From positions 13,993-77,992 of the forward strand of contig JAFLBE010000009.1 in assembly GCA_017303995.1 (NCBI GenBank): a stretch of 64,000 nucleotides of DNA, given 5' to 3'. The DNA comes from Bacteroidota bacterium (GTDB lineage Bacteria; Bacteroidota; JABWAT01). The notes below the pieces were generated by a model. The model was not told the DNA's origin and did not search any database. It saw only the letters and a list, made by a program, of their open reading frames with translations. Position numbers and translations under genes: made by a program. Positions 5,905 to 62,667 of the stretch are shown here, one piece after another (within the stretch, counting starts at the first letter, position 1; each line of letters starts with the position of its first letter).

Positions 5905-6151
5905 CCAAAAACATCCAATTTTGTATTTTTAACAATATTTGAAAATTAATGAAAAGCTAATCTGAATACTTGATTTTTTTCCTCATGCCATTCTGCCCTG
6001 AATTCTGCACTTTTCCCCCACTCCGGTTCTGAAATTCCTGAAAACTTCGCAACTATCTGATTTTTAAAGACTTTGGACAATTAAAAATAATTTGCAAATA
6101 AATAAATTATTTGTAAATTACAGTAGGTAAGTCCGGAATTATAAAAAAGAT

Positions 6152-8350
6152 ATGTCGATATCACTGCTAAATGAACCTGCGGAACAGAATCTGAACCGGC
6201 TTTTGGAAACTTGTCACCGGAATTTAAAAACGGTTGATGACGGGTTGATCAGAAAGGCTTTTCAGTTCTCTTACACTGCCCATCAAAATATACAAAGGGC
6301 CAGTGGGGAACCGTATTTCATTCATCCGCTTGCAGTTGCTACCATTCTTGCCGAAGAATTGATTCTGGATGATATCTCGGTTGCAGCAGCACTTCTTCAT
6401 GATATCATTGAAGACACCGACTATGAATTTGATTTCCTGAAAAAGGAATTTGGTGTTACCGTCGCAAATTTAGTTGATGGTGCCACCAAAATAACCGACA
6501 TGTTTAAAAGCCATGAAGTCACTGAAGCTGAATCCTTCAGAAAACTCATGCTTTTCATGATCAAAGATATTAGGGTTATTCTGGTCAAGTTTGCTGACCG
6601 GCTTCATAACATGCGCACGCTGCAGTTCCTTCCTCACCCGAAACAAGTTAAAATCGCAACCGAAACCCTCGATATTTATGCACCTCTGGCTCACCGGTTC
6701 GGTCTCTGGCAGATTAAATGGGAGCTTGAAGATCTGAGTTTTAAATACCTGAATCCGGAATCCTACGAAGATATTTTCAGAAAAGTAAATGCACGTCGTG
6801 AAGAACGTGAAGGTTATATTGGCCAGTTCACCAATCCCATTGCAGAACGGTTGACGGCTGCCGGATTTCATTTTGAACTTTCAGGTCGTCCCAAGCATTT
6901 TTACTCGATTTACAACAAGATGGTGAACCGGGGCAAACCTTTCGAAGAAATTTATGACTTGTTTGCCGTGAGAATCATTCTCGACACCCAGCAGGCTTAT
7001 GACTGTTTTACCGTTTATGGCATTGTAAGTGATATTTATTTTCCGGTTCCGGTTCGGTTTAAAGATTATATTTCTGTTCCAAAACACAATGGCTATCAAA
7101 GTATCCATACAACAGTTGTTGGACCCGAAGGCAAATTGGTTGAAGTCCAGATCAGAACCCGTAAAATGCATGAAATTGCTGAAAAGGGAGTTGCCGCTCA
7201 CTGGTCTTACAAAGAAGCCGGTGAATCTGTTGTCAATAAGCAAAGTGATGAATGGATCAGCTGGGTCAGAGAAATTTTTGACCAGGCAGACAGTTCTGAA
7301 AATCCGAATCAGTTTATCGAAGATTTTAAACTGAATCTGTTTCAGGATGAAATATTTATTTTCACGCCGAAGGGTGATCTCAAAATCCTTCCGAAAGGGT
7401 CGACCCCGGTAGATTTTGCCTATGAAATCCATACCAACGTGGGAAATCACTGTATTGGCGCCAAAATTAATGGTAAAATTGTTCCTCTGAATACCCGAAT
7501 CGACAACGGTAATCAGGTTGAAATTATTACATCCAAAAATCAGAAACCCAATCCGGATTGGGAAAAGTTTGTTGTTACCCACAAAGCTAAAAGCAAAATC
7601 AGGGCTTTTCTGAATGAAGAAAAACGGAAGATAACTGAGCTTGGCCGTGAAATGTGGGAAAAAAGGGTTAAAAAGCTCAAGCTGAAGTTCACTGATCTTG
7701 AATTAAATAAGCTGACTCAGGATTTGAAATACTCAAATCAGTCGGCGTTTTTCTATGCGATCGGTTTCGGACTTTTCAATCATGAGGATTATCTCGAAAA
7801 ATATATCATCCGGCAGACGGCAAAAAAAGAACAGAAAGCGGATGAGAAACCTGAGTTTGGCACTTTCGAAGAATTTGTAAAGACATCCCGTTCCGGCCAG
7901 AAAACCTTGGTTGTTGAAGGTAAAAACGCCAATATTCAGATGAATTATGCCAAGTGCTGCAATCCCGTTCCCGGTGATGAAATTGTGGGATACGTGACCA
8001 TTGGCGAAGGTATTAAAGTCCACCGGAAGAATTGCCGGAATATTGTAAATTATTCAAACAGTGAAGTGCTTCGCCTGGTCGATGTTGACTGGCCAAAAGG
8101 TGCTCACGAAGATTTTATGGCTGGAATCAGGCTTTCTGGTGAAGACAGGAAAGGGTTGGTTTCTGATATCACCAATGTGATTTCAAAAACAATGAACACG
8201 AATATCAGAGGTTTAAATTTTAATACCAAGGATGGAATATTTGACGGTTCCATCATCGTTTTTGTTAATGATGTTGATCATTTGTTACGGATTATTGACC
8301 GGATGAAACGGATCGAGGGTGTGAAGTCGGTAGCCCGTCTTGAAGAGTGA
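6152..8350 (+). CDS. bifunctional (p)ppGpp synthetase/hydrolase, RelA/SpoT (RSH) family
   Basis: It has an HD hydrolase domain (LLHDIIEDT), a synthetase domain (RFKDYISVPKHNGYQSIHTTV), and TGS and ACT-like C-terminal domains (GLVSDITNVIS). Confidence 0.85.
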   Translation: MSISLLNEPAEQNLNRLLETCHRNLKTVDDGLIRKAFQFSYTAHQNIQRASGEPYFIHPLAVATILAEELILDDISVAAALLHDIIEDTDYEFDFLKKEFGVTVANLVDGATKITDMFKSHEVTEAESFRKLMLFMIKDIRVILVKFADRLHNMRTLQFLPHPKQVKIATETLDIYAPLAHRFGLWQIKWELEDLSFKYLNPESYEDIFRKVNARREEREGYIGQFTNPIAERLTAAGFHFELSGRPKHFYSIYNKMVNRGKPFEEIYDLFAVRIILDTQQAYDCFTVYGIVSDIYFPVPVRFKDYISVPKHNGYQSIHTTVVGPEGKLVEVQIRTRKMHEIAEKGVAAHWSYKEAGESVVNKQSDEWISWVREIFDQADSSENPNQFIEDFKLNLFQDEIFIFTPKGDLKILPKGSTPVDFAYEIHTNVGNHCIGAKINGKIVPLNTRIDNGNQVEIITSKNQKPNPDWEKFVVTHKAKSKIRAFLNEEKRKITELGREMWEKRVKKLKLKFTDLELNKLTQDLKYSNQSAFFYAIGFGLFNHEDYLEKYIIRQTAKKEQKADEKPEFGTFEEFVKTSRSGQKTLVVEGKNANIQMNYAKCCNPVPGDEIVGYVTIGEGIKVHRKNCRNIVNYSNSEVLRLVDVDWPKGAHEDFMAGIRLSGEDRKGLVSDITNVISKTMNTNIRGLNFNTKDGIFDGSIIVFVNDVDHLLRIIDRMKRIEGVKSVARLEE

Positions 8351-8375
8351 GCTTTTACACACGAAAGGGAAGAAA

Positions 8376-8723
8376 ATGAAACCTAGAGTTAAAACTCTGA
8401 CCAAAAAAGACGTAGCCAAGAAGGTTGCTGAAGATAATGATGAGCGGTTGTATCATACCTCAAAATGGGTAGATTCAACGTTTGCCGCACTTCGGGAACT
8501 TATGCTGACCACTGATGAAGAGGTCAGGATTGAAATTCGTGATTTTGGTGTTTTTGAAGTGAAAATTACCCGGCCCAAACCGAAAGCCCGCAATCCAAAA
8601 ACCGGCGATACGGTTTACATTCCCTGGAGAAAGAAAACTCACTTTAAGCCAAGCAAACTCATTCGTGAAGCTCTTCAACAGCCCCTTTCGGATGAAAAAA
8701 TCAAAGAAATTATGGAAGAATAG
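8376..8723 (+). CDS. HU/IHF-family DNA-binding protein
   Basis: The HU-fold arm motif is RDFGVFEVKITRPKPKARNPKTGDTVYIPWRKKTHFKPSKLIRE. The start is set at the internal Met after the relA stop. Confidence 0.65.
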   Translation: MKPRVKTLTKKDVAKKVAEDNDERLYHTSKWVDSTFAALRELMLTTDEEVRIEIRDFGVFEVKITRPKPKARNPKTGDTVYIPWRKKTHFKPSKLIREALQQPLSDEKIKEIMEE

Positions 8724-9134
8724 ATGACCGGATTTTATCTCGGCCTCGATTTGGGAGATGTCAGAACCGGAATTGCAAAATCGGATCCGCTTGGCATTCT
8801 GGCGACGCCGCTCAAAACCATTCCTGCCGGTACTTTACTGGATGAACTGAAGCAATTAGTTTCTTCTGACTGTAAAGGATTGGTGATCGGAATGCCCTTT
8901 AACCTGAAAGGACAGGCTGAGCAAAAGGCAAAATTTGTTGAAACTGTGATAACGTCCATCCGGGGTGAGTTTCCCGATCTTCCCATCGTGACTCTGGATG
9001 AACGGTTTACGAGCAGAATTGCCCAGCAACAGATTCTAGCTTCAGGCCGAGGTAAAAAAGCCCGTCAGGAAAAAGGTCTCGTTGACCGCCAAGCAGCAGC
9101 CATTATTTTGCAGGATTATTTGAACAGCAAATAA
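8724..9134 (+). CDS. ruvX: Holliday junction resolvase-like protein YqgF/RuvX
   Basis: The N-terminus is GLDLGDVRTGIAKSD, the RuvX/YqgF RNase H-like signature. Confidence 0.8.
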   Translation: MTGFYLGLDLGDVRTGIAKSDPLGILATPLKTIPAGTLLDELKQLVSSDCKGLVIGMPFNLKGQAEQKAKFVETVITSIRGEFPDLPIVTLDERFTSRIAQQQILASGRGKKARQEKGLVDRQAAAIILQDYLNSK

Positions 9135-9366
9135 TCAATGATTAATGGTAAATGATTAATGATCAATGGTTAATGGTTAGTGAAATTAGGAATCCCGGAA
9201 ATAAATCCCGAAGGGATTAAATACGAATAACCCCGGATCACAATCCGGTGGTTCAATATGAAGAAAATCAATCAACCCCGAATGGGGTTGAAAAATCTTA
9301 GGCAATCTGAACAAATTCCCGCATTTAAAATTTATATTCTGAGTTTCAATTAGGGCCGATCCTAAC

Positions 9367-10800
9367 TCAACCCCGTCTGGGTTCTGCTATTTTTTTTATC
9401 ATTCCGTTGAAAATGTACCCATGAAAGGGAAGAACTGAATACCAGTACAATAAACCCAAAACGCCCAATGGTCTGAAGGTTGCCGTTTGAGTCAGAAAAT
9501 TGTTGTCATCAATTTTAAATTCAAGCCAGGCTTCACCGGGTAATTTCATTTCGGCAAACAACAGCAATCGCTTTTCACTTTTATCAGCAAGTAAAACCCG
9601 CCAGAAATCAAGAGCATCACCGGGAGCAATTTCAGTATCGCTTTTCCGTCCTCTCCGCATGCCAACACCGCCAATCACCTGATCCAAAAATCCTCTGATT
9701 TTCCATAGCCAATTGGCGTAGTACCAACCGGTTTTTCCACCGATTGACCAGATTTTATCCAGAGAAAACTGTGCATTTTCAATTTTTAAACGGCGGATAT
9801 CTTTAAAACATCCGTTGACAGGGACTTCAATAAATTTTGATAATCCTTTTCTGAACAAATCGCTGGTTTGCGCATCCTTCCAGCTGGATAAAACCTGATT
9901 TTGTTCGATTTTATCAAAGGCAAACCGAATGGATGTATCGTAATCAATCAGCTGGATACCCAGGTTTACAGCAAGATCGTTGGGTTCACAGGTGACCTCC
10001 GTTTTCATGCTGTTCACCAAATTCTTGGCGAGGGGAAAAGAAGTTGCAGTTAAAAAATACAACCAGTAGGAGGATATTTTTGGCGTCATGATCGGAACGA
10101 TGAAAATACGGCGTTTAAGTCCGCGTATGGAAGCAAACCTGAGAAGCATCTCTTTGTAGGATAAGAGATCAGGACCACCAATGTCATAGCTTTTGTTGTA
10201 AGTGAACTCTTTGCCAATAACACCGGTTAAAAATTCAACCACATTTCTGATTGCGATAGGCTGGCATTGTGTATTGAGCCATTTGGGGGTAATCATAAAG
10301 GGAAGTTTTTCAACCAGATCCCTGATGATTTCAAAGGAAGCACTTCCCGATCCCATGATAATACCAGCTCTTAACGTCGTTAAAGCAAATTTGCCACCAG
10401 ATAAAATGGCTTCAACATTTTTACGGGATGATAAATGTTTAGATAATTCTGATGAATTTACAATTCCGCTCAGATAAATAACTTGTTTGGCCGTTGTTTG
10501 ATTGATCCGGTCTTTAAAGTTTTGTGCGCAAATCTGCTCCATCGATTCAAAATCACCAATTTCAGTCGACATGGAATGGATCAGATAATAGGCAATATCA
10601 ATATCATCAGGAATCGTTGCGAGACTCGAAGAATCCAGAAAATCAGCTTCAATGACAGTCAAAGCCTCTGAACTGTAATTTTTCCGGTTGAACCGGTTTT
10701 TGTCCCTCACGCAGCAAACGACTTCATGTCCGTTTTCAATTAGTACGGGTAAAAGTCGTTGGGCAATATAGCCGGTAACACCGGTGAGCAGAATTTTCAT
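9367..10800 (-). CDS. NAD-dependent epimerase/dehydratase (SDR) fused to a DUF2867 domain
   Basis: The Rossmann motif is MKILLTGVTGYIAQRL. A long C-terminal extension matches the common SDR-DUF2867 fusion architecture. Confidence 0.65.
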   Translation of the reverse strand: MKILLTGVTGYIAQRLLPVLIENGHEVVCCVRDKNRFNRKNYSSEALTVIEADFLDSSSLATIPDDIDIAYYLIHSMSTEIGDFESMEQICAQNFKDRINQTTAKQVIYLSGIVNSSELSKHLSSRKNVEAILSGGKFALTTLRAGIIMGSGSASFEIIRDLVEKLPFMITPKWLNTQCQPIAIRNVVEFLTGVIGKEFTYNKSYDIGGPDLLSYKEMLLRFASIRGLKRRIFIVPIMTPKISSYWLYFLTATSFPLAKNLVNSMKTEVTCEPNDLAVNLGIQLIDYDTSIRFAFDKIEQNQVLSSWKDAQTSDLFRKGLSKFIEVPVNGCFKDIRRLKIENAQFSLDKIWSIGGKTGWYYANWLWKIRGFLDQVIGGVGMRRGRKSDTEIAPGDALDFWRVLLADKSEKRLLLFAEMKLPGEAWLEFKIDDNNFLTQTATFRPLGVLGLLYWYSVLPFHGYIFNGMIKKIAEPRRG

Positions 10801-10856
10801 GGAAATATTGAGAGTATGAAGGTGGATTGAGAATGTGCCTGAAGAAAAGAAAACAT

Positions 10857-11126
10857 TCAGCGTTTGCTTATTTTATTTAAGGTAATGGTTCGTTGCATGG
10901 TACTTTTAAACCGGTTGATTTCCGGATTTCGTTTCATTGCATGTTTTTGACTGACTCCGCTGTTTACTCTTTTCCGCCATAAGTTAAAACTGCTTCGTTT
11001 TAATTCTCTTCGCATCAGTGCAATGACATCGGCCTCAGAAAAGCCAAACTGAAGTTTAATGGCTTCAAACGGGGTTCGGTCTTCCCATGCCATTTCAATA
11101 ATTCGGTCAATGTCCCGTGGTTCCAT
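10857..11126 (-). CDS. DUF2805/TIGR03643-family small protein
   Basis: The segment DRIIEMAWEDRTPFEAIKLQFGFSEADVIALMRRELK is highly characteristic of this family. Confidence 0.65.
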   Translation of the reverse strand: MEPRDIDRIIEMAWEDRTPFEAIKLQFGFSEADVIALMRRELKRSSFNLWRKRVNSGVSQKHAMKRNPEINRFKSTMQRTITLNKISKR

Positions 11127-33170: not shown

Positions 33171-34709
33171 ATGATTTCAGCCACAACCCCCAAAGTAAGT
33201 TTGGTAAAATCGTTTACCAATCCGTTCAGAAATGCCATTGCTACGGCACGAACCTGTTATTCATCCAAAGGGATAATAACTGATCAGGATGTAAACGAAA
33301 AACATTTTCATATCGCTCACTCCACCTATCAGGCGGGTCATCATACAACGCTTCAACATGCCCATTTCCAGTTTGCTATAACTGATGTGTCTCGTCACAC
33401 CATCTGGAGTTTTCTTCACAGCCACCCGTTTTACAATTCTGAACAGGTCAGTCAGCGTTACGTTGAAGTCAAACCCGGTACTTTTTACGTTCCCCCGATC
33501 TCAGGTTCGGCACTTGAACTTTATCTGGCCACGCAAAACAAGCTGATGGATTACTACCATCAATTAAATGAATCTTTACTTGGCGTAACGACATCTGCGT
33601 ATCTTGATCGGTTTCCGGCAAGAAAAAGTGATCAGAAAAAAATTGACCGGGACGTCAAAAAGAAAACCCAGGAAATAGCACGGTACGTGCTTCCTGTCGG
33701 AACATTTGCCTATTTATATCACACAATTTCAGGCATCACTTTACTTCGTTACTGGCGGTATTGCCGGCAGTATGAAACCCCACAGGAAACCCGTGATCTG
33801 ATTGAGGCCATGGTTCGTCTCATGCTCGATCACGATCCGGAATTTGGAGAAATCATTCAGGAACCGCTGACCCTCGAAGAAACTCCGGAATTCGCCCAGT
33901 TTCAGCAATTCTGGCAAGGGAAAAATCCAACCAAGGAATTTATAAATGAATTTGATCTAAGTCTGGATGGCAGGGTTTCAAAACTGATCGGCTGGTCTGA
34001 ACAGGCAGAATCAACTGTGGCTTCTGCGGTAAGGGAAGTTTATGGCTTAGCCTCATCAGAGCTTTCTGATGTTGAGGCAATCAACAAGCTTTTAAATCCT
34101 GCAGAAAATAAAATCTTTGGTGAAAATCTGAACCTGACAACTCATTCCAAATTGTCACGGGCAATGGTTCACGCTCATTATTCCTTCCGTAAAAAATTAA
34201 GTCATGCTGCCGATTCTCAGGATCAGCGTCACCGGATGACACCCGGAAGCCGGCCGATTTTATCCACCCACATCACAGATGATCCAGATTATATTACACC
34301 GGTTATTGTCAACCTGGATGAAAAATCTAAACGATTGTACGATGAGGCGATGTCGGTTGCCTGGGATGCCATCAGAAAATTAAAATTGTTGGGCGTTTCT
34401 GAAGAATACGCAAATTTTCTGCTTCCAAATGCGGTTTCCGTCCGGTTTACCGAGTCAGGGGATTTGCTGAATCTTCACCACAAGCACCAGATGCGGTTGT
34501 GTTACAATGCTCAGGAAGAAATCTGGCGGGCATCTCTTGATGAAGCTTTGCAAATTTCTGAAGTTCATCCAAATATCGGTCGATTTCTCCTTCCACCGTG
34601 CAGCCAGCGATCAATGAGCGGAACCCGGCCAATTTGTCCGGAAGGGGATCGTTTCTGCGGAATAAAAGTGTGGAGATTAAACCGGGAGGATTATTCCCGG
34701 ATTATCTGA
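33171..34709 (+). CDS. ThyX-like (flavin-dependent thymidylate synthase family) protein, unusually long, probably a tandem/pseudo-dimeric form
   Basis: The N-half has ARTCYSS and SRHTIWSFLHSHPFYNSEQVSQRY, resembling the ThyX motif RHRxxS...SxRY. The C-half has QRHRMTPGS. At 512 aa it is about twice a canonical ThyX. Confidence 0.4.
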   Translation: MISATTPKVSLVKSFTNPFRNAIATARTCYSSKGIITDQDVNEKHFHIAHSTYQAGHHTTLQHAHFQFAITDVSRHTIWSFLHSHPFYNSEQVSQRYVEVKPGTFYVPPISGSALELYLATQNKLMDYYHQLNESLLGVTTSAYLDRFPARKSDQKKIDRDVKKKTQEIARYVLPVGTFAYLYHTISGITLLRYWRYCRQYETPQETRDLIEAMVRLMLDHDPEFGEIIQEPLTLEETPEFAQFQQFWQGKNPTKEFINEFDLSLDGRVSKLIGWSEQAESTVASAVREVYGLASSELSDVEAINKLLNPAENKIFGENLNLTTHSKLSRAMVHAHYSFRKKLSHAADSQDQRHRMTPGSRPILSTHITDDPDYITPVIVNLDEKSKRLYDEAMSVAWDAIRKLKLLGVSEEYANFLLPNAVSVRFTESGDLLNLHHKHQMRLCYNAQEEIWRASLDEALQISEVHPNIGRFLLPPCSQRSMSGTRPICPEGDRFCGIKVWRLNREDYSRII

Positions 34710-52280: not shown

Positions 52281-52440
52281 AATTCCTTACCTGTGGCGAT
52301 ATAATGAAAGGGCTTCCATTTAAATCAAAGGTAATGAAAAATTTTCAAAAGTCACAGGATGTAAATCACGTTAGGAAAGCATTTTGTTTGAATTGACAAC
52401 ACCAGAAACACCTTTGAGTTTTCTGTTGTAAACTAGTTTG

Positions 52441-52603
52441 AAGCACCATAGGTGCGACCCATTTGTAGAATCAAAATCGATTTAAGATTGAAGCTCCATC
52501 GGAGCGACCTGTACAGAATCAGGGAAAGGGTAAACAGGTCGCTGCTCTGCAGCTATTTTGAGGGATGGGTTGGTTTTCTACAAACAGGTCAGGGCTACGC
52601 CCT
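52441..52603. repeat. copy 1 of a ~160-bp structured direct repeat
   Basis: It is near-identical to 52728-52890. It contains internal inverted repeats (GCACC-ata-GGTGC; TTTGTAGAA...TTCTACAAA; GCGACCTGT...ACAGGTCGC). Confidence 0.7.
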
Positions 52604-52727
52604 TCCAAAATACCTAATAAAATTGAATTTAAATCCAATATTAGAATATTAATTACAAGAATGGTTGAGGGAATTAAGGTTAACAAAACAGATACTCACT
52701 TTAGTTTTCTGTTTTGTACAAGTTTGC

Positions 52728-52890
52728 AGCACCATAGGTGCGACCCATTTGTAGAATCAAAATCGCTTTAAGTTGGAAGCTCCGTCGGAGCGACCTGTAC
52801 AGAACAAGGGAAAGGGAAAACAGGTCGCTGCTCTGCAGCTATTATGTGGGCTGGGTTGGTTTTCTACAAACAGGTCGGGGCTACGCCTCT
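52728..52890. repeat. copy 2 of the ~160-bp structured direct repeat
   Basis: It is a near-identical direct copy of 52441-52603 with about a dozen substitutions, several of them on paired stem positions. Confidence 0.7.
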
Positions 52891-53159
52891 TCTTTTATAT
52901 CCATCCCGTCGACAACACCCATGATGATGGCGTTGGCGGGCATTTTGTCTGATCCGGTCATTTGCTTCACCACATCACCTTCCTGAGCAACCAAAACCGT
53001 ATCACCGACGCCTGCAGACGAAAAATCAATGGCGAGAAGATCTGATCCATCTGGTTTGCCGTCAAGTCCGATAGGCTGAACGATAAGCAGTTTGCTGGAA
53101 TCAAGATTGTTGTTTTTAACCGGAGCGACAACCGTTCCGGTTACTTTGGCTAAAATCAT
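52881..53159 (-). CDS. EutN/CcmL/PduN-family bacterial microcompartment vertex protein (orphan)
   Basis: MILAKVTGTVVAPVKNNNLDSSKLLIVQPIGLDGKPDGSDLLAIDFSSAGVGDTVLVAQEGD aligns closely with EutN/CcmL (MxxAxVIGTVVsT...KLLlV...dG...A.D..GAG.G..VLV). Its start overlaps the glmM-like stop (ATGA). Confidence 0.6.
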   Translation of the reverse strand: MILAKVTGTVVAPVKNNNLDSSKLLIVQPIGLDGKPDGSDLLAIDFSSAGVGDTVLVAQEGDVVKQMTGSDKMPANAIIMGVVDGMDIKEEA

Positions 53160-54523
53160 GGTGTCATCATCGCACGGATTTTCGCCACGTACGTTTCCCC
53201 GAGGGTATCGGCCTCAGATTGGGTTGGTGCTTCTGTATAAATGCGGATGATTGGTTCTGTGTTCGATTTTCTCAGATGAACCCAACGGTCAGGCAAACTG
53301 ATTTTCAATCCGTCACGCTGATCAATCTTTCCATCTTTTTCTGAAGCAGACAGTTTGGCAATGATGTCATCCGGATTGTTTTTCCCTAGATCAACTTTCT
53401 TTTTTCCCATTTCAAAATTGGGAAGACCGGCACGAAGAACGGAAATTGGCTTATTTCCTTCAACAAACCAGGCCACAATCAGCAACGCAGCAACCAGGGA
53501 ATCCCGGCCATAATGAGATGCCGGAAGAATCACACCGCCGGAGCCTTCACCGCCGATGACAGCCCCTTTTTCCTGCATCATTTTCACCACATTGATTTCA
53601 CCGACTTTTGACCGGTGACAGGTCACACCATACCGTTTTGCAACTTCTTCAACTGCCTGTGTTGTCGAAAGATTGACTACAACGTCACCCTTTTTCCGTT
53701 TGAGGATGTAATCAACGGCTGCCGTAATTGTGTATTCTTCGCCCATGGGTTCGCCATTTTCGAGAATCACCGCCAGACGGTCTGCATCCGGGTCAACGGC
53801 AAGTCCGAGATCTGCTTCTTCGAGTTTCACCCGGGCCATTAAATCGGTCAGGTTGTGCGGAAGAGGTTCAGGAACGTGTGGGAAAAGTCCGTTCGCACCA
53901 CAGTTCATTCTGATGACTTCACAACCCAGTTTTTCAAGCAATTCAGGAAGGGCAACTGAACCGGCACCTTCAACCGCATCGAGAACTACTTTGGGTTTTC
54001 TTTTTTGGATGGATGCATAATCGATAAAATCAAATTCCATCATCATGCTGATGTGAGTTTGGTGGTAGTCTCTGATCTTTTTAAAAGAACCGGTTTTATC
54101 ATAGTTGACGGAAATGAATTTACCCGATTCTTTGATTTTCAGGAGGGCTTCACCTTCTTCGGGCGACATAAATTCGCCGGTATGATTCAGGAGTTTCAGG
54201 GCATTCCATTCCGCCGGATTGTGGGAAGCTGAGACGATAATGCCGCCTTGTGCGCCAAATTGTTCAACGCCAATCTGAACGGTCGGAGTTGGCACCACGC
54301 CAAGATCGATAACATCACATCCGCACCAGTTTAGAGTTGAGCTCACCAGTTCGGAAACCATTTTCCCGGTGATGCGGGAATCCCGGCCGAGAACGATGGT
54401 TGCTTTTGGAAAAGATTGCCTGACCCAGGTGGCGTAAGCAGATGAAAAATCGACGATAACCTGCGGAGTGAGTCCGTCACCCACAATTCCCCGGATTCCG
54501 GAGACGCTGACCATTAAAGGCAT
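53156..54523 (-). CDS. glmM: phosphoglucosamine mutase / phosphohexomutase family (GlmM-like)
   Basis: The N-terminus has GIRG. The active-site phosphoserine loop is SASHNP. It has the four-domain alpha-D-phosphohexomutase layout and is ~455 aa. Confidence 0.75.
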   Translation of the reverse strand: MPLMVSVSGIRGIVGDGLTPQVIVDFSSAYATWVRQSFPKATIVLGRDSRITGKMVSELVSSTLNWCGCDVIDLGVVPTPTVQIGVEQFGAQGGIIVSASHNPAEWNALKLLNHTGEFMSPEEGEALLKIKESGKFISVNYDKTGSFKKIRDYHQTHISMMMEFDFIDYASIQKRKPKVVLDAVEGAGSVALPELLEKLGCEVIRMNCGANGLFPHVPEPLPHNLTDLMARVKLEEADLGLAVDPDADRLAVILENGEPMGEEYTITAAVDYILKRKKGDVVVNLSTTQAVEEVAKRYGVTCHRSKVGEINVVKMMQEKGAVIGGEGSGGVILPASHYGRDSLVAALLIVAWFVEGNKPISVLRAGLPNFEMGKKKVDLGKNNPDDIIAKLSASEKDGKIDQRDGLKISLPDRWVHLRKSNTEPIIRIYTEAPTQSEADTLGETYVAKIRAMMTP

Positions 54524-54900
54524 ATTGAAGTCCTGAATTTAAAAAGTGAACGGCACCTCTAAAAACATAACCAGTGTCATCCCGGACCTGATCCGGGATC
54601 CAGTATTGGTGTTATAAACCGAGGTTTTAGAGGTGCTATGTAAAAATACGAAAAAAGCACGGGAAATGGAGAGTTGGATTTTTGTGTTCGCTTTTATTGG
54701 GTTGGGGGGGGAATTGAAGCAGAAATTGGGTTCGGTTTTTGGGGAAAAGGTAACAATGTTTTATTCAGAATTCAAAAACCAGTAAGGTAAATTTAAATAC
54801 CTTTATGTAAAATTGACTTAAGGTTTAACTGCTAATATCTTTGTCAGTCCCGACCCCGGGATTGCTCACCCTTCTTTTTAATTTTTCAGGACATCTGACC

Positions 54901-57900
54901 ATGAAACCTTTATTTCTGGCTGTTTCATTACTAATCTTTTTTTGTCTTCAAACAAGTAATGCTCAAGTTGGTTCCCCGGGAAATTTTGAAAAGTATGAGT
55001 TTCAGCCGGAGGCATGGAAACTTCCTGACATGTCAGCGGGCTCGGTTAATGAACATGGTGATTATACAACTTCAATTGGTCTTGCCCAAATCAGTTCACC
55101 GTCTGGGTTAGCCTTTAATTTTAATATTTATTATTCCAGTGATATTCACTATGATGATGTTTCGGGTTGGCTTGGATTGGGCTGGCAAGCCAATCCGGGT
55201 ACAATTTCAAGAAGTGTAAGGGGGGATTATACACCTTTTAATGAATCAAATATTAATGCAAGAAGTTTTAGTACAAAAGATAAAAACCCAGTTGATTTTC
55301 CTTCAAATTTGAAGGAAAACCATTGGGATGGGTATTTGGATTTATTTAATGTTTCCTTACCGGATGGTACTAACCTGGAAATGGTTGTAGAAGAGAGTGG
55401 AATAACATCCGCTTCTCAAACCCATCAGTTCAAAGTATTAAACGAAAAGGGATTTTCAGTTGAAGCAAAATTTGGGCCTGTTTCTGATCGGACCGGTACT
55501 GTTTCTGTGGCACAGAATAAGTATTATGCTGATGGGATTTCTGCAACCGATTACACTTCTTTTATTATTACTGCACCAAATGGGATCCGGTATCTTTATT
55601 GCCAGCCAACTCTGGAACTGAATATTGGCTTCGGTACCAGTCAATCAGTTTATGTGAGTACCTGGAGAATTGGTGCAATTATCGGACCTGAATATAAAGG
55701 TAACATTTGGTCAGCGGATAACAATCCTACAGCAAATTCGATTGTTTTCCGCTATGGTCATGAAACCATGAATACGACGCAAAAGGTTTTCCCAAATAGG
55801 CTTTTAACTGGTCTTAGTGTTCTTGTTGGGGATAAATTAAATGCGGATTACAAATATGAAGCTATTTCTCATCTAAAATACCTTATCTCAGTTGAATCAA
55901 AAACCCAAAAATTGAGTTTGACTTATATTGATGACATTACCACTGAAAAAAATAGTCAGATTCCGTACAAGGTAACCGAAAATCAGGTTGAATCTGCTGG
56001 ATCTTGGGGTTTAATCCCAATCTTAGGCAGGAAACGAATAGATAAAATCGAAACTTATCAGAATCTGGAAAATCCCGTTTCTTCTAAGCTGGTCAAAACC
56101 GCCTCACTGGGTTATTCTATTGATTTCGGTCGTTGTTTTCTGGTTTCTTTAACTCAATCAGAATTGGAAGGAAAACAATATTTCTTTGATTATGACCTGA
56201 GCGATGCTTCAGGGGAATTTGATTATACAACAATTTGGAATTATTACAATAATAACGATGATTATGAAAGATTTACCAAGTTTAGAAATAGTCTCTATGT
56301 TTACCATCCCTATGTTGTGCCATTTGACATCAATGGTTATTATAAAACCCGTTCCCTTTCTACTGTTCCAGAATCTGATCTATTAAATGATTATACTGTT
56401 AAATCAAAGCCCAATATTGGGCAATTGACCTCAATTTCATTTCCAACAGGGAAAATTGAAAGCATTAAGTATACCAAAAAACAGATAACCAGCCAAAAGA
56501 CTTATGATTTTGGCTGGAGTGGATTTACAAAGTATAAAGTTATACCCTACAGTTATAGTGATTTAGAAAATAAATATAACAAACAAATCAGTAAAAATGC
56601 ACTATTCCATGTTGCAAAGTACTTTGAGGGAGATATTGATTTTTTTACAAAAAGCTGTCCTGAAAAAATCACAATCTCGGATGATACAAATGTTGGTGAA
56701 ACAATAAAATTATACTCCTACGAAAAACCAGTTTTTCCCGGAATTGTTCGTGAAATGCACTTCAATGACTTCACCCGCTTGATGGATGAAGGGCCAGACA
56801 ATACCTGTCTTTCAGAGGCCACTTATGGTTTGTGGGCATCCGATTGGCAAAATGGTAATGCTTCCTTTCAGAACTTTGTAAATAACCTGGAACCCCTTGA
56901 TGATTTTATAACAAGCAAGGCAACCCGACTTATGGATGTTGAAGACCGGGTTTGGTTTTCTGAGGTTTATGAGACCGTTAATGAAAAAGTTGTTAATGGC
57001 CATTTTACTCATTTTAAATCTAAGCAACCCATTGGGATTTTATTGTTTAAATCTGTTTCCGGATCTCAACAATCCGTGGTCCTCATGAGCAGTAATTATC
57101 ATTTGGCTACTCTTCAAAAAGCATCGGAGCAATATTCAATTCAGGATGGAATAAGGAATTCAAAAAAAGTTTGGGAAGAAGATGATTTTTCGACAAAAAT
57201 AAAATTAAATCCGAATGGACCCAATTTCTCCACTTACCCAATGGAAGATTTTGAAAGCCATTATAATTTTAAAAAATTACCAGAAATTGAAATAGCGGAT
57301 GGTCTTAAACTTGAAAAAACGTTCCGTTCATTTGACTATGCCGGAAACCTGGTTTTTCAGGCAGATTATACAGGTAAGGTGAACAATAGCTATCAATTCT
57401 CAATTCTTTATAATCGCTATCTATATGAAGAATCCAGTATTCCCGGTTATCAGATCCTGAAGCGAAATGCGAAAATTCAACAGATATCTGGTGTTTGGAC
57501 CGTTGATTCGTTGAAATTTATCGACCAGGATTCAGTAAAAAAATATTTGCTCCCAGTTGAGAATTTTCTGAAAGAGGCTTGTGGTCCTAATTCAGCCGGA
57601 GATAATGTAATTGAAACCAACTCAACAGGTTTCAAGCTGATATCTAATTCTATATTTCATTACAAGGATTTTGGCTCAAATAACGGTGGGTTTCAGGTTG
57701 ACTGGATTGCGAAATCAAAAGACTGGAAATGGTATCGTTACCCTAACTGGGCTCAAACCACGCTTCCCCCTGTTGATAAGTGGAAAGTTGAGTATCAGAT
57801 TACCGGCTATTATCAGTTTGGTGTGCCAAAATCTATTGATTATGGCCGATTTTCAGAATCCTATTATTTAGGAAGTAAAACAAACCCCTTTATTTCTGAT

Positions 57901-60900
57901 GATGATTCGATCTACACTTATAAAATGACAGGAAGAAAAATTACAGGGAAAAGTTTGTCATTATCTGAATATGCTTTCAGTGCCAGGTATGACGATTACG
58001 GCAGACTTATTGAGGCAAAAGCGCCAAATAAAAACATCTATGCATTTGGGTACGATGCATATCACCGGCTTGTTCACGTAAAGCGAAACGGACAAAACAT
58101 CAGAAGGTATGCCTATAATATTGCAAGGTTTAATGGGGATCCCATAAAAATTTCAACAACTGATTATACAAGTAATGTTGATTCCCTGATTTCAACAGAA
58201 TTCATGGATGGACTTGGTTTAATTCAATCTCAGAGTGGAAATGCCCAGGTTGTGATGATTTCTGAACCTGTTTTTGATAAGTCCTGGGAAGCCCTGGGAC
58301 AGACCCAAAGTCTTGTTTTTAAATCAGGAGAAACTGGATTTCAAAATCCATGGAGTAAAACTTTTCATTCTTCGTTTACCAATGGCGGTAAGTTACAGGT
58401 TGATAAATTATTTAATTACGGTGAAAACAAATCAAATTACGATCAGACCTATGCCGCAAGTCGTGGAACAGGAAAATTGTTAACTAGTGGGGGACCTGCA
58501 GCCTTTTCTGAAAGCAATTCTTCTCCATTTGGTACCAATATCGTTGAGACAGGTCCAGGTACCACCAGGCGAATGAAAGAAAAATACAGTCGATCTGTAA
58601 GCAGGAGGGTGATGGATAATTATCTTATTGCGCTCATGATTGATGAAGATGAAAGGGTTCAGTTTGCAATTTCAGAAACGGATGGAAAAAAACTTATCAC
58701 AGGGTCAACAAACCTTTCATCCTTATCCCCATCCGCTTCTGGTGGAATAGTCTCCCTGTTTAATAAAATAAACAAAACTGTCTCACCTGTTCAGAGTTCC
58801 ACACCTGTAGAAAACCCGGGAGACGGAGGTCCAGATGAAGGGGATGGTTATGATCATCCGATAGACCCGCCAGCCTGTCTGGTTGCAAGTGAACTGGGAG
58901 TAAATGGCGACCTTATTGAAACACGTGAAGTTGGTTGCGGTTCAAGTAATAATTTTGTTATTGGCGGGACAGTAACACATCTAGAACAGTTAACTCCTGT
59001 TGGAACTGTATCTTATCAGAAGTTATCGCCACTTAGTTATTTGGAGGTACAAATAAATAACCTTGATTCCGGTAAAAATCTTAATCTTTTGTGCAATGGT
59101 GAATTAATTAAAGTTTTTACGGGGCCTTTAACAGATTATGTTTTCAGGTATTATGGCGGCGAACTTACAGACAATTTTATTATTGATTACGAAACGGATC
59201 TCGGGTGCATAACCTGTTCAGATATTGTCTCATTTAAGGAGGTTAGTTTGATGAACCTAATCCCCCAAAGTGTAACTCAATACAAATATAATGATTTGAA
59301 TCAATTGGTTAATGTTATTCACCCGGATGGCAGTGAAACCCGGTATGACTATGATTTTTTTGGAAATGTGATCAGAAAAGAAACACCCTTCCAGAATGGA
59401 AAACTTAAAAACGGAACACTGCCGGAAAGTGATGTTTCAGTCAATCCTGATTTTGAATATGCGTATGACCAATATGGTCAGTTAAGAATGAGTATTGATC
59501 CCAATCAGTCGGTTGCCGGGAAAATGTCTGTTTTTCAGTATGATGGTTTTGGTCGGTTAATTGAAACTGGTGAAATGAACAGTTCAGCCAGGTTTATATC
59601 AGTAAATGCTGAAAATCCGCTTTTCCCTTTTACAACAGCTCCGCTAAACGGAACGGCAGCATTAGATCCATTTGACCGTGGTAATTTTACAGCCCCTGCT
59701 GACTATATCTGGAAACAGCAGTTTTACTATGATGGCTCAGATACCTCAGAAGGAAGGATCTTCCAGGTTAGAGAAAATGTTCCGAAACCGGATGGAACTT
59801 TAGGTACTTTTACAAAGGAAATTAAATACCGTAAGGAAGGCTGGGTTGCGAAAGTAAATACAACCTACCCCAATGGGGTCACTCAGGAGGAAGTTGTTTA
59901 TACTTTTGACCTGACCGGGAAGCCAACTTTCTCTGCCCTTTTGGTAAATGGGACGCTGAAACAGCGCCAATGGTATGAGTATTCCGCATTTGGCCAACTG
60001 ACCAAAGTTTGGTTAAGCAAAACAACAGCCAAACCTGCTTCACCAACCTTTACCTATAACTATAACCGGTTTGGACAAATCGGAAGCAAATCAATCGGTC
60101 CGATAAGTACCAAACTTTATCAGGGATTTACCGAAGAGGGATGGCTTGACTCTCTTTCAGTGTACCCCTCACTGGCTGCTTCACAAAACCCTGCAACCCG
60201 GTTGTTCCGGCTGAAGTATAATTATTACAATTCTACATTTTCCGCAGACAGGACTTATTCGCCCTTATATTCCGGAAATATCGGACAAATGCTCACCAGC
60301 CATAAGGATATAACCGATGATCTTCTGGAAACGTTTACCTATGATGGTCTCAACAGGCTTTCAGCATCCCAAACAGATAAAATATTTAAAACAACCGGTT
60401 CGATTTACAAAAACGATATCTATGGTTCATTCTATTCATACGATGTCATGGGAAATGTGCTGAATTTGCAGAGAAACTGGGACTCACCTTCACAACCCGG
60501 ATCAACAGAACTGAAAGATAATTTCATCTACCAGTATGATGGTTCCCGTTTGAGGAATCTGGTTGATTTATCTACAGTTGCTACCAATCAAAGCCTGAAC
60601 ATAAAAACCCAGGTTTCAACAGTTTCAGGCTCTTCCCTGTATCAGAATGTAGTTTTCCCAGGACTTTCTGATGGTTTTGAGGCCTATCCGACCGGCCCAG
60701 GACTTCCTTCTCCCGATTTTTCATCATCAACTTCAACCCAGGTCGGTATTTCGACTGATGCTGTTAAAGGCAAGGTTTTGACACTTAATCTATTACCTGG
60801 GAAAACCTCAGCCAATACACAGGCGGATACCATTCAGGTTGTTTTTCCCAGAACCTATCAGCTTAAGTTTGATTACAAAACAGGGTTTTATAATGATGGT

Positions 60901-62301
60901 GAAATGCAATGGAATTCAGCTTTGACCGTTTCATTAATCTGGTTGAAAACAAATAAAACGGTACTGTCAACGGCAACCCTTTTAAATGCTGTAAATTCAC
61001 CTGCCTGGCTCACCATAACGCGGTCGGTGACAGCACCAGATCAGGCTGCTTTCCTGGTCGTGAAATTCACTGCTTCAGCCACTTATACTCCTCTTTCCGT
61101 CCAGATTGATAATTTCCTGATCGAGGAAAATAATCTGGCTTATACATATGACGGAAACGGAAACATAACTCAGGACAAAATCAGAGGAATCAGCGGAATT
61201 GTTTACAACTCCCTGAATCTGCCCACCCAGCTATCCAACCTGACACAAACCGTAAATTATGGTTATCTTTGGGAAGGAAGCAGGTGGTTCAAAAAGGTGG
61301 GAACCACCATTCAGTATTATCTAAGAGGAAGCGGCGGAGAGCTTCTCGGTGAATATACAGGCACCCCTTCTACCATGAATTACCTGAATCTGTACGGGAT
61401 GGATCTTGAAGGAAAATGGCAATATGACACACCCGGTGAGTATTTTTATGTAAAAGATCATCTTGGGAATGTTCGCCAGATACTGAAGAATATCTCGGGT
61501 GCACCTCAGTTATCATCTAAAACAGATTATTACCCGTTTGGTGCGGTGATGAGAGAAACCAATTCCCTGTCACTGGCAGAATCTAAGTTTAAGTACCAGA
61601 ATAAGGAGAGAGATGTAGAATCTGGGTATGACTACTTCGAAGCCCGGATGTATGACAGTCAGCTCGGACGGTTTTTACAAGTGGATCCCCATGAATTTAG
61701 ATATCCAAATATAAGTTCATATGCAGGGATGAACAACAACCCTATAAGATACGATGATCAGACTGGGAGGGATCCTGGTGATTTATTTAAAACCAGAAAT
61801 AGAGCCGCAAGAGATTTTGGTAAAACATTTAATGGCGTATCTATTAAACAAAAAAAGGAATATGGAGCAACTATTTACACTACAACAGCTGCAGATGGAA
61901 AAACATATTACTCATATTCTAAACCAGATGTTGGCGGAAATGCAGGTACTAGTGTAAGCCCCGCCCCGGTTGGGACAACACCTGTCGCAGATATACATTC
62001 TCACGGGGGTTATGAAAAAGGTTATGATAACAATAATATTTCACCTCAAGACAAAGCTGATAATGACAAAACAAAATTGGTAGGTTATGTATCTACACCG
62101 GATGGGTCATTAAAGAAATATGATCCAAACACGAAAAAGGAAACCGTTGTAACAGAACAGTTACCAAGTGATCCAAATGATCCTAACAGGAAAAATAAAA
62201 TTAATCCAGATCAAAAAGTAACCCCTGAAGAAAAGGAAGTACCTGAGAAAAAACCAGAACCAGAAAAAAAGGAAGAGTCAGAAAAAAAGAATGGGAATTA
62301 A
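54901..62301 (+). CDS. giant secreted RHS/YD-repeat polymorphic toxin protein (RHS repeat-associated core + C-terminal variable toxin domain)
   Basis: There is a Sec signal peptide (MKPLFLAVSLLIFFCLQTSNAQ). A ~1450-aa N-terminal region is of unknown fold. Many YD repeats (YDYDFFGNVI, YAYDQYGQL, YDGFGRLIE, YTYDGNGNITQD) lie at nt ~59280-61780. The RHS core ends YFEARMYDSQLGRFLQVDP...NNNPIRYDDQTGRDPG. Then a ~170-aa tail (EYGATIY...DGKTYYSYSKP...VADIHSHGGY) is followed by a Lys/Glu/Pro-rich low-complexity end. Confidence 0.8.
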   Translation: MKPLFLAVSLLIFFCLQTSNAQVGSPGNFEKYEFQPEAWKLPDMSAGSVNEHGDYTTSIGLAQISSPSGLAFNFNIYYSSDIHYDDVSGWLGLGWQANPGTISRSVRGDYTPFNESNINARSFSTKDKNPVDFPSNLKENHWDGYLDLFNVSLPDGTNLEMVVEESGITSASQTHQFKVLNEKGFSVEAKFGPVSDRTGTVSVAQNKYYADGISATDYTSFIITAPNGIRYLYCQPTLELNIGFGTSQSVYVSTWRIGAIIGPEYKGNIWSADNNPTANSIVFRYGHETMNTTQKVFPNRLLTGLSVLVGDKLNADYKYEAISHLKYLISVESKTQKLSLTYIDDITTEKNSQIPYKVTENQVESAGSWGLIPILGRKRIDKIETYQNLENPVSSKLVKTASLGYSIDFGRCFLVSLTQSELEGKQYFFDYDLSDASGEFDYTTIWNYYNNNDDYERFTKFRNSLYVYHPYVVPFDINGYYKTRSLSTVPESDLLNDYTVKSKPNIGQLTSISFPTGKIESIKYTKKQITSQKTYDFGWSGFTKYKVIPYSYSDLENKYNKQISKNALFHVAKYFEGDIDFFTKSCPEKITISDDTNVGETIKLYSYEKPVFPGIVREMHFNDFTRLMDEGPDNTCLSEATYGLWASDWQNGNASFQNFVNNLEPLDDFITSKATRLMDVEDRVWFSEVYETVNEKVVNGHFTHFKSKQPIGILLFKSVSGSQQSVVLMSSNYHLATLQKASEQYSIQDGIRNSKKVWEEDDFSTKIKLNPNGPNFSTYPMEDFESHYNFKKLPEIEIADGLKLEKTFRSFDYAGNLVFQADYTGKVNNSYQFSILYNRYLYEESSIPGYQILKRNAKIQQISGVWTVDSLKFIDQDSVKKYLLPVENFLKEACGPNSAGDNVIETNSTGFKLISNSIFHYKDFGSNNGGFQVDWIAKSKDWKWYRYPNWAQTTLPPVDKWKVEYQITGYYQFGVPKSIDYGRFSESYYLGSKTNPFISDDDSIYTYKMTGRKITGKSLSLSEYAFSARYDDYGRLIEAKAPNKNIYAFGYDAYHRLVHVKRNGQNIRRYAYNIARFNGDPIKISTTDYTSNVDSLISTEFMDGLGLIQSQSGNAQVVMISEPVFDKSWEALGQTQSLVFKSGETGFQNPWSKTFHSSFTNGGKLQVDKLFNYGENKSNYDQTYAASRGTGKLLTSGGPAAFSESNSSPFGTNIVETGPGTTRRMKEKYSRSVSRRVMDNYLIALMIDEDERVQFAISETDGKKLITGSTNLSSLSPSASGGIVSLFNKINKTVSPVQSSTPVENPGDGGPDEGDGYDHPIDPPACLVASELGVNGDLIETREVGCGSSNNFVIGGTVTHLEQLTPVGTVSYQKLSPLSYLEVQINNLDSGKNLNLLCNGELIKVFTGPLTDYVFRYYGGELTDNFIIDYETDLGCITCSDIVSFKEVSLMNLIPQSVTQYKYNDLNQLVNVIHPDGSETRYDYDFFGNVIRKETPFQNGKLKNGTLPESDVSVNPDFEYAYDQYGQLRMSIDPNQSVAGKMSVFQYDGFGRLIETGEMNSSARFISVNAENPLFPFTTAPLNGTAALDPFDRGNFTAPADYIWKQQFYYDGSDTSEGRIFQVRENVPKPDGTLGTFTKEIKYRKEGWVAKVNTTYPNGVTQEEVVYTFDLTGKPTFSALLVNGTLKQRQWYEYSAFGQLTKVWLSKTTAKPASPTFTYNYNRFGQIGSKSIGPISTKLYQGFTEEGWLDSLSVYPSLAASQNPATRLFRLKYNYYNSTFSADRTYSPLYSGNIGQMLTSHKDITDDLLETFTYDGLNRLSASQTDKIFKTTGSIYKNDIYGSFYSYDVMGNVLNLQRNWDSPSQPGSTELKDNFIYQYDGSRLRNLVDLSTVATNQSLNIKTQVSTVSGSSLYQNVVFPGLSDGFEAYPTGPGLPSPDFSSSTSTQVGISTDAVKGKVLTLNLLPGKTSANTQADTIQVVFPRTYQLKFDYKTGFYNDGEMQWNSALTVSLIWLKTNKTVLSTATLLNAVNSPAWLTITRSVTAPDQAAFLVVKFTASATYTPLSVQIDNFLIEENNLAYTYDGNGNITQDKIRGISGIVYNSLNLPTQLSNLTQTVNYGYLWEGSRWFKKVGTTIQYYLRGSGGELLGEYTGTPSTMNYLNLYGMDLEGKWQYDTPGEYFYVKDHLGNVRQILKNISGAPQLSSKTDYYPFGAVMRETNSLSLAESKFKYQNKERDVESGYDYFEARMYDSQLGRFLQVDPHEFRYPNISSYAGMNNNPIRYDDQTGRDPGDLFKTRNRAARDFGKTFNGVSIKQKKEYGATIYTTTAADGKTYYSYSKPDVGGNAGTSVSPAPVGTTPVADIHSHGGYEKGYDNNNISPQDKADNDKTKLVGYVSTPDGSLKKYDPNTKKETVVTEQLPSDPNDPNRKNKINPDQKVTPEEKEVPEKKPEPEKKEESEKKNGN

Positions 62302-62307
62302 ATATAT

Positions 62308-62667
62308 TTGTATTTTAATATGGAGGATGATTTTATGGTAAAGTTATTTTTTATTTCAGTAACAATAATGGTGTTGACTTTGACTATGACCACTACGAAT
62401 AATGCAGAAAAAAATAATAATCAAAATAAAGGTTACGTACCAGAAGACGGTTTTGTGCCAAATGAGGAAACTGCCGTCAAGATTGCAGAAGCGGTTTGGT
62501 TCCCCATTTACGGTGAGAAGATCAATGAAAACAAACCATTTCAAGCAATTTTAGTCAAGGGTGTCTGGCAAGTTACTGGAACGATCCATACCAGCAAAGG
62601 CGGGGCACCATATGCAGAAATTCAAAAAAATGATTGTAAAATTCTCATAATAACCCATTCAAAATAG
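62308..62667 (+). CDS. putative immunity protein, NTF2-fold immunity-like (Imm-NTF2 family)
   Basis: EETAVKIAEAVWFPIYGEKINENKPFQAILVKGVWQVTGTIH...GGAPYAEIQKNDCKILIITHSK matches the pattern of NTF2-fold immunity proteins found downstream of Bacteroidota RHS/polymorphic toxins. It lies 6 bp downstream of the RHS gene stop. An alternative start at the MVKLFF Met is possible. Confidence 0.55.
   Translation: MYFNMEDDFMVKLFFISVTIMVLTLTMTTTNNAEKNNNQNKGYVPEDGFVPNEETAVKIAEAVWFPIYGEKINENKPFQAILVKGVWQVTGTIHTSKGGAPYAEIQKNDCKILIITHSK

Follow-up and report, generated by a model that had tools for sequence, protein, structure and literature searches.

A lone microcompartment vertex gene in a housekeeping operon of a Bacteroidota genome is probably a dispersed shell gene of the FRAG1 type

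Why should a gene for a pentameric vertex protein of bacterial microcompartment (BMC) shells lie, without any recognizable shell or cargo gene beside it, in an operon with a sugar-phosphate mutase? The question is raised by a 64-kb stretch of the 104,634-bp contig JAFLBE010000009.1, from a Bacteroidota metagenome-assembled genome (MAG); we refer to this whole stretch of 64,000 nucleotides as the window. An earlier reading, made from the letters of the window without database searches (the sequence-only reading), had described an orphan vertex (BMC-P) gene of the EutN/CcmL type coupled to the mutase gene and suggested that it might represent a non-BMC use of the EutN fold. We consider it probable that the gene is instead a dispersed vertex gene of the fragmented microcompartment type FRAG1, expressed from a housekeeping operon. 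The features concerned are as follows.

52881..53159, minus strand: single-copy orphan gene for a BMC-P vertex protein, 92 aa (PF03319 match, AlphaFold2 fold, substitution rates, clade in a neighbour-joining tree)
53156..54523, minus strand: phosphohexomutase gene of the archaeal-type GlmM / PGM-PMM clade, 455 aa (four PGM_PMM Pfam domains, TIGR03990)
53156..53159, minus strand: start/stop overlap of the mutase and BMC-P genes, ATGA, 4 nt (TCAT on the plus strand, read from the sequence)
54524..54840, no strand: intergenic spacer 5′ of the mutase gene, shared with a divergent RHS gene (map of open reading frames, ORFs)

The EutN/CcmL identity of the 92-aa protein was borne out along its full length. 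Residues 1–84 match positions 1–83 of the 83-position Pfam profile PF03319 (EutN_CcmL) with 78.8 bits, against a cut-off of 25, and the best matches in a sequence search of the PDB were GrpN, EutN, the H. ochraceum shell BMC-P and CcmL. An AlphaFold2 monomer model based on an alignment of 37 homologues (pLDDT 82, pTM 0.71) was compared with the PDB using Foldseek. Ranks 1–47 are all BMC-P vertex proteins, including GrpN, CcmL, EutN, the H. ochraceum shell BMC-P, MSM0273 and CsoS4, with best TM scores of 0.72–0.78 (0.78 for GrpN). By this model, the 92-aa protein has the same five-stranded barrel as the solved vertex proteins. Since the protein falls below the NCBIfam equivalog cut-offs for CcmL, EutN and CsoS4 (NF053795, 58.1 of 125 bits; NF011992, 48.3 of 118; TIGR02703, 27.5 of 120), it is classed as a BMC-P, yet not as an orthologue of a carboxysome or Eut vertex protein. 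The shell-type motifs KVxGxxV, (G/D)AGxG(D/E)xV and (I/V)VD are kept, with the canonical GAGxGE reading SAGVGD and I(V/I)D reading VVD. The arginine of the GSSAR motif is replaced by K65 (codon at about 52965–52967), and one extra residue precedes the EG motif relative to the solved vertex proteins.

We also confirmed that the gene stands alone in the window. No BMC-H or BMC-T protein was detected there by a local hidden Markov model (HMM) built from shell-locus BMC-H/T proteins of less than 130 aa and run with --max against every six-frame segment that was 35 aa or longer (best E-value 5.6), and tblastn of the window with PduA, five BMC-H/T proteins and a BMC aldehyde dehydrogenase (AldDH) gave no match. 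EutN itself occurs in a single copy, by tblastn and by a six-frame search with an EutN HMM. Pfam scans of 51 large ORFs, which include every ORF of the window above 116 aa and all but a few of the shorter ones, found no AldDH, PduL/Pta or glycyl radical enzyme, nor DeoC (PF01791) or RpiB (PF02502), which together with AldDH are the signature of SPU-type microcompartments. The window holds housekeeping genes, among them those for a XerC-like integrase, relA/spoT, def, fmt, ssb, ftsY, thyX, coaBC and dnaB, together with a secreted GH57/CBM26 (amylase-like) enzyme bearing a type IX secretion system tail, and an RHS toxin cassette.

The coupling to the mutase gene was likewise as described. On the minus strand, the ATG of the BMC-P gene overlaps the TGA of the mutase gene in the sequence ATGA, an arrangement through which translation of the BMC-P would be coupled to that of the mutase. 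No GGAG-type Shine-Dalgarno motif was seen by eye in the 30 nt upstream of the window BMC-P gene, unlike in several relatives, where a ribosome-binding motif of this type precedes it. The spacer at 54524..54840 presumably contains the promoter of the two-gene operon. A scan for the sigma-70 consensus, which does not cover promoters of the Fibrobacteres–Chlorobi–Bacteroidetes (FCB) group, gave one promoter-like site on the plus strand (54813–54841) and none on the minus strand.

The mutase was assigned to the archaeal-type clade on the basis of family models. It passes TIGR03990 (Arch_GlmM, NCBIfam) with 514.9 bits against a cut-off of 439 and fails the bacterial glmM model TIGR01455 (213.6 against 447.55 bits); its nearest solved structure is the PGM/PMM-type phospho-sugar mutase of Pyrococcus horikoshii (1WQA, 281 bits). 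A phosphopentomutase identity was set aside, given 146 bits for 9ix8 against 281 bits for 1WQA and 515 bits for the GlmM model. Residues 4–448 of 455 align with positions 3–443 of 444 in TIGR03990. Because this alignment runs from end to end, there is no room for the linker and helix of an encapsulation peptide, and no extension resembling one was found at either terminus.

To place the window gene among its relatives, we used a scan of one genome per GTDB species, which yielded 80 loci; with loci from earlier searches, 89 loci and the window were analysed. The closest BMC-P homologues (52–79% identity) lie directly 3′ of a PGM_PMM gene, in flanks that are otherwise dissimilar, and remoter homologues (at most 48% identity) belong to true shell loci, one of them SPU-like, with BMC-H, BMC-T, AldDH, RpiB and DeoC, and another composed of aldolase, BMC-H and a BMC-P triplet. 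Seventy loci have one BMC-P copy and no BMC-H/T match within 10 kb on either side, and make up the orphan set; one of them, L005, is actually a shell locus. The orphan loci come from Ignavibacteria, Chlorobi, Kryptonia, Rhodothermales (Rhodothermia) and Bacteroidota MAGs.

The pairing with the mutase, which the sequence-only reading had proposed to check in related FCB genomes, is conserved: a mutase gene lies upstream on the same strand in 44 of the 70 orphan loci, and in 24 of these 44 the two genes overlap or are at most 30 nt apart. The spacing is a 4-nt ATGA or GTGA overlap in 15 loci, another overlap in one, a gap of 0–30 nt in eight, 31–200 nt in a further eight, and more than 200 nt, mostly with one to three inserted genes, in 12; the remaining 26 have no mutase nearby. 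The steadier neighbour is dprA, found directly downstream of the BMC-P gene in 56 of the 70 loci, mostly overlapping it or within about 100 nt, and sometimes with a 4-nt overlap of its own (e.g., L070:8479–9600). The usual block reads MEMO-like < AMMECR1-like < mutase > BMC-P > dprA > Rv0495c-like > rpoN > hslV, and the order from mutase to hslV is probably ancestral. Individual lineages depart from it. In the Ignavibacteriales/Melioribacteraceae branch, two small genes stand where the mutase gene would be; in the Rhodothermales branch, a gene for an AAA protein replaces the mutase gene and dprA is absent. In the window lineage dprA has been lost, with no copy anywhere in the 64 kb, and a GH57 gene follows the BMC-P gene. 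Kryptonia loci (L017:8709–10004 and matching parts of L028 and L041) contain a 431-aa gene of unknown family between mutase and BMC-P, which breaks the tight coupling.

In a rough neighbour-joining tree, the 92 BMC-P sequences of 90 loci fall into three groups, in line with the BMC-P triplet already published. The lone copies all belong to a single clade, nested inside one of the three groups beside copies from shell loci such as the SPU-like L006 and L007, which hold BMC-H, AldDH, RpiB and DeoC. Within the orphan clade 24 alignment columns are at least 90% conserved. The BMC-P positions kept are, in window numbering, K5, V6, G8, V11, K15, D45, G50, G52, V55, E60, G61, P74 and D84, and K5, V6, G8, V11, K15, D45, G50, G52, V55 and D84 are common to the orphan clade and the shell-locus copies. 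Seventy species-level genomes have the ORF intact, at 90–92 aa. Comparison of the window with its closest relative gave a ratio of nonsynonymous to synonymous substitution (dN/dS) of 0.085 for the BMC-P gene and of 0.090 for the mutase gene, although dS is nearly saturated. The BMC-P gene is therefore real and under strong purifying selection. These data already contradict the reading of the gene as a now functionless relic of a microcompartment locus that was lost. That reading would account for a BMC-P alone in 64 kb that has lost a conserved motif residue, and we regard it as highly improbable for a gene conserved across so many genomes and constrained on a par with the adjoining enzyme gene.

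The sequence-only reading took a lone vertex protein paired with a mutase to be an arrangement not described for canonical microcompartment loci, but an undescribed kind is not supported. Lone BMC-P genes without enzymes are catalogued in the same phyla as FRAG1 (Sutter et al. 2021, Nat Commun 12:3809) or as "satellite-like" loci (Axen et al. 2014). The shell genes of FRAG types lie dispersed at as many as six sites, usually with no enzymes beside them, and include a BMC-P triplet; FRAG1 comprises 57 shell-protein-only loci with a BMC-P triplet of the clades coloured green, grey and orange, two BMC-H proteins, one with a C-terminal extension, a PduS/PduT pair in 24 cases and no recognizable cargo enzymes (Sutter et al. 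2021). Its taxa are Ignavibacteria, Kryptonia, Bacteroidetes, Chlorobi and Rhodothermaeota (Sutter et al. 2021), the same list as that of our orphan loci, and the Bacteroidetes MAG from which the window comes fits it. The dispersal of shell genes away from enzymes that characterizes FRAG1 is also what we found in the 70 loci, within 10 kb on either side, and in the window.

Two genomes provide a more direct link. The Ignavibacteriales MAGs CG_4_9_14_3_um_filter_30_11 and CG_4_9_14_3_um_filter_34_10 carry the orphan loci L052 and L070, and their PduT-type BMC-T proteins CO128_10830 and CO129_04540 are labelled FRAG1 (sat) in the BMC-T tree of Supplementary Data 4 in Sutter et al. (2021), where Melioribacter roseus MROS_2475 also appears as a FRAG1 PduT. 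At least two genomes with the orphan clade thus also encode other dispersed shell proteins. Related complete genomes show the same pattern, with three satellite-like loci containing two BMC-H and three BMC-P genes in Chloroherpeton thalassium, and seven BMC-P genes in five loci in M. roseus (Axen et al. 2014, Table S2). In the accessible part of the published tree, the FRAG1 BMC-P entries are green-clade "viridian3" proteins of 88–99 aa, and grey and orange BMC-P always co-occur in triplets (Sutter et al. 2021). As the green member is thereby accounted for, the 90–92-aa orphan clade would be the grey or the orange member of the triplet. Table S2 of Axen et al. (2014) also lists two BMC-H and no BMC-P genes for Ignavibacterium album, yet the uncultured Ignavibacterium sp. 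of locus L057 has an orphan BMC-P beside dprA; the small gene may be unannotated in I. album.

Given these properties, we propose that the 92-aa protein is a BMC-P subunit whose pentamers would cap the vertices of a microcompartment shell, and that it belongs to a vertically inherited, single-copy clade in lineages whose shell genes are scattered round the chromosome. The BMC-H genes would be encoded elsewhere in the window genome. One BMC-P paralogue would have settled in the housekeeping block long ago, where it would be co-transcribed with the archaeal-type GlmM/PGM-PMM mutase gene and, through the ATGA, translationally coupled to it, an arrangement that could ensure a steady, low-level supply of a minor shell component. 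Since the mutase bears no encapsulation-peptide extension and the other neighbours are housekeeping genes, we read its link to the BMC-P as one of shared expression and not as a partnership, be it physical or metabolic. Of the interpretation offered by the sequence-only reading, the conserved pairing stands. The non-BMC use is not favoured, in view of the FRAG1 PduT genes elsewhere in two carrier MAGs, the steadier association with dprA, the 26 mutase-less loci and the mutase's lack of an encapsulation peptide.

Several observations weigh against a dispersed shell gene, and some of them speak for a rival reading in which the orphan was exapted as a small OB-fold-like oligomer, independent of a shell, that might act with the mutase, DprA or both as a scaffold, a regulator or a binder of nucleic acid or sugar. 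Apart from L005, all of the 70 orphan loci are free of shell genes for 10 kb to both sides, and within the 64 kb seen of the window genome there is no BMC-H, BMC-T or second BMC-P. The overlaps of 4 nt, which involve the mutase in 15 loci and dprA in some loci, exceed loose synteny, and the gene has been kept in its housekeeping block over several phylum-level lineages. The GSSAR arginine is retained in 97 of 101 diverse BMC-P proteins from a profile search, 37 of 40 remoter matches of the first search and all 11 sister copies from shell loci. Of 50 distinct orphan sequences, 45 have lost it; the five that keep it are four Kryptonia sequences and L058 from Rhodothermales. This loss suggests altered constraints on the orphan clade. 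Both genomes in which FRAG1 proteins co-occur belong to the mutase-less sub-clade and not to the mutase-paired one, the neighbour-joining tree carries no support values, and the accessible part of the published tree does not settle whether the orphan is grey or orange. BMC-P proteins derive from OB-fold proteins, and the multiplicity of their paralogues has been taken to hint at an additional role (Sutter et al. 2021). We nevertheless regard a shell-independent role as unlikely. No partner is constant, the mutase being missing in 26 of 70 loci and dprA in the window and the Rhodothermales loci; the clade is nested within shell BMC-P proteins and retains their other conserved motifs; carrier genomes (at least two) and related complete genomes encode other shell proteins; and our literature search found no paper linking EutN with DprA. 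A bolder form of the idea, in which one triplet BMC-P was recruited in Ignavibacteria, Chlorobi, Kryptonia and Rhodothermia to a constitutive, shell-independent job with the envelope-sugar mutase and the ssDNA-processing DprA, the arginine loss marking the change, appears distinctly unlikely. If true, this would be a non-shell use of the EutN/CcmL fold without documented precedent, and would account for there being more BMC-P paralogues than 12 vertices need.

The mutase might alternatively be a working partner of the FRAG1 organelle, its interconversion of sugar 1- and 6- (or 5-) phosphates feeding an SPU-like compartment and so revealing the FRAG1 substrate. The nearest shell-locus relatives of the orphan do include SPU-type loci with RpiB and DeoC, an SPU aldolase adjoins BMC-P in FRAG3, FRAG5 and FRAG8 (Sutter et al. 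2021), the pair recurs in 44 of 70 loci, and the archaeal phospho-sugar mutase clade has both PGM/PMM (1WQA) and phosphopentomutase (9ix8) among its solved members. This reading seems rather unlikely to us, as the window enzyme scores above the GlmM equivalog cut-off and far nearer to PGM/PMM than to phosphopentomutase, lacks a targeting extension and has housekeeping genes for its other neighbours. Moreover, the Ignavibacteriales/Melioribacteraceae and Rhodothermales branches keep the orphan in the absence of the mutase, and no aldolase, AldDH or RpiB was found near any orphan BMC-P in the 70 loci. A dispersed FRAG1-type vertex gene, supplied from a housekeeping operon, remains the explanation we prefer.

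Some further observations concern the surroundings of these genes. The spacer between the BMC-P stop and the GH57 start measures 601 nt in the window and about 130 nt in the closest relatives. It holds two copies of an element of about 199 nt (52403–52601 and 52689–52887), 89% identical and 286 nt apart, each of which folds as a long imperfect hairpin (z = −5.1, minus strand). The element, which has no Rfam match, occurs in none of the 90 fetched loci and may be an insertion resembling a miniature inverted-repeat transposable element or a repetitive extragenic palindrome. On the other side, divergent from the mutase operon, lies the polymorphic toxin cassette (54841–62667), with a 2486-aa RHS-repeat protein ending in DUF4329 followed by an Imm-NTF2-2 immunity gene; relatives have a shorter, homologous 462-aa gene in the same position. 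Elsewhere in the window, ThyX (33171–34709, 512 aa) contains two Thy1 stretches and looks like a tandem-duplicated, double-length flavin-dependent thymidylate synthase. L005, on a 5.17-Mb contig, has an ACI-like mini shell locus with Aldolase_II, BMC-H, three BMC-P and a 2-hydroxyacid dehydrogenase; a canonical cdaA-ybbR-glmM operon lies upstream, its end about 1 kb away. A second, independent link between GlmM and BMC genes in this locus (4586–11000) was rejected as probable chance, as the similar loci L056 and L078 lack it.

FRAG-type compartments have been catalogued as sets of scattered shell genes; their cargo is unrecognizable. What our analysis adds is modest: the monophyly of the orphans, the conservation of the block mutase > BMC-P > dprA and the orphans' loss of the arginine in GSSAR. 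Together they indicate that one FRAG BMC-P paralogue forms a single, ancient and strongly conserved clade in a housekeeping operon, often joined by 4-nt overlaps. The orphan BMC-P offers a defined handle for study in carriers that can be cultured, such as Melioribacter or Chloroherpeton. Were its product found in shells, the gene would be an ordinary case of dispersal, expressed constitutively; were it missing there, BMC-P paralogues would have their first evidence for the "additional role" suspected by the authors of the catalogue. For annotation, a lone EutN gene should not be equated with ethanolamine or carboxysome function, nor the lack of a neighbouring shell gene with the lack of a microcompartment.

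Compared with known systems, the window mutase resembles the archaeal-type phospho-sugar mutases (TIGR03990 GlmM; 1WQA) in its full-length match above the cut-off and its four PGM_PMM domains; it differs in being bacterial, and it may act on glucosamine 6-phosphate or on glucose or mannose phosphates. To our knowledge, no archaeal-type phospho-sugar mutase has been associated with a BMC protein. The BMC-P shares with the solved pentamers GrpN (4i7a), EutN (2hd3/2z9h), CcmL (2qw7, 4jw0) and H. ochraceum BMC-P (5v74) the full-length fold (TM 0.72–0.78), 30–39% identity and the conserved core residues. It differs from them in failing the equivalog models, in having K65 for the GSSAR arginine and an extra residue before EG, and in adjoining no shell or cargo gene. 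SPU-type copies (L006/L007 and L084), among its closest shell-locus relatives in the tree at 48–53% identity, adjoin BMC-H/T, AldDH, RpiB and DeoC genes and keep GSSAR, neither of which is true of the window gene. The CcmK3/K4 satellites of beta-carboxysomes are similar in that shell genes lie obligately apart from the main locus, a placement read as allowing separate regulation (Sutter et al. 2021). They are, in contrast, BMC-H genes with a known main locus, whereas the window gene is a BMC-P in a housekeeping operon with no main locus known. The satellite-like loci of C. thalassium and M. roseus, from related lineages, resemble it in the dispersal of all their BMC-P and BMC-H genes (Axen et al. 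2014); their BMC-P genes are presumed to be orthologous to the window gene from taxon alone. The conserved mutase > BMC-P > dprA block is absent from the FRAG1 catalogue, and the accessible text and supplements of Sutter et al. (2021) do not mention a mutase, PGM or PF02878 beside BMC-P, nor do those of Axen et al. (2014) mention a mutase or dprA. The window gene, known from 64 kb alone, matches FRAG1 in its phylum, in being a lone BMC-P gene without adjacent enzymes and in belonging to a clade of which two carrier MAGs are listed in that catalogue.

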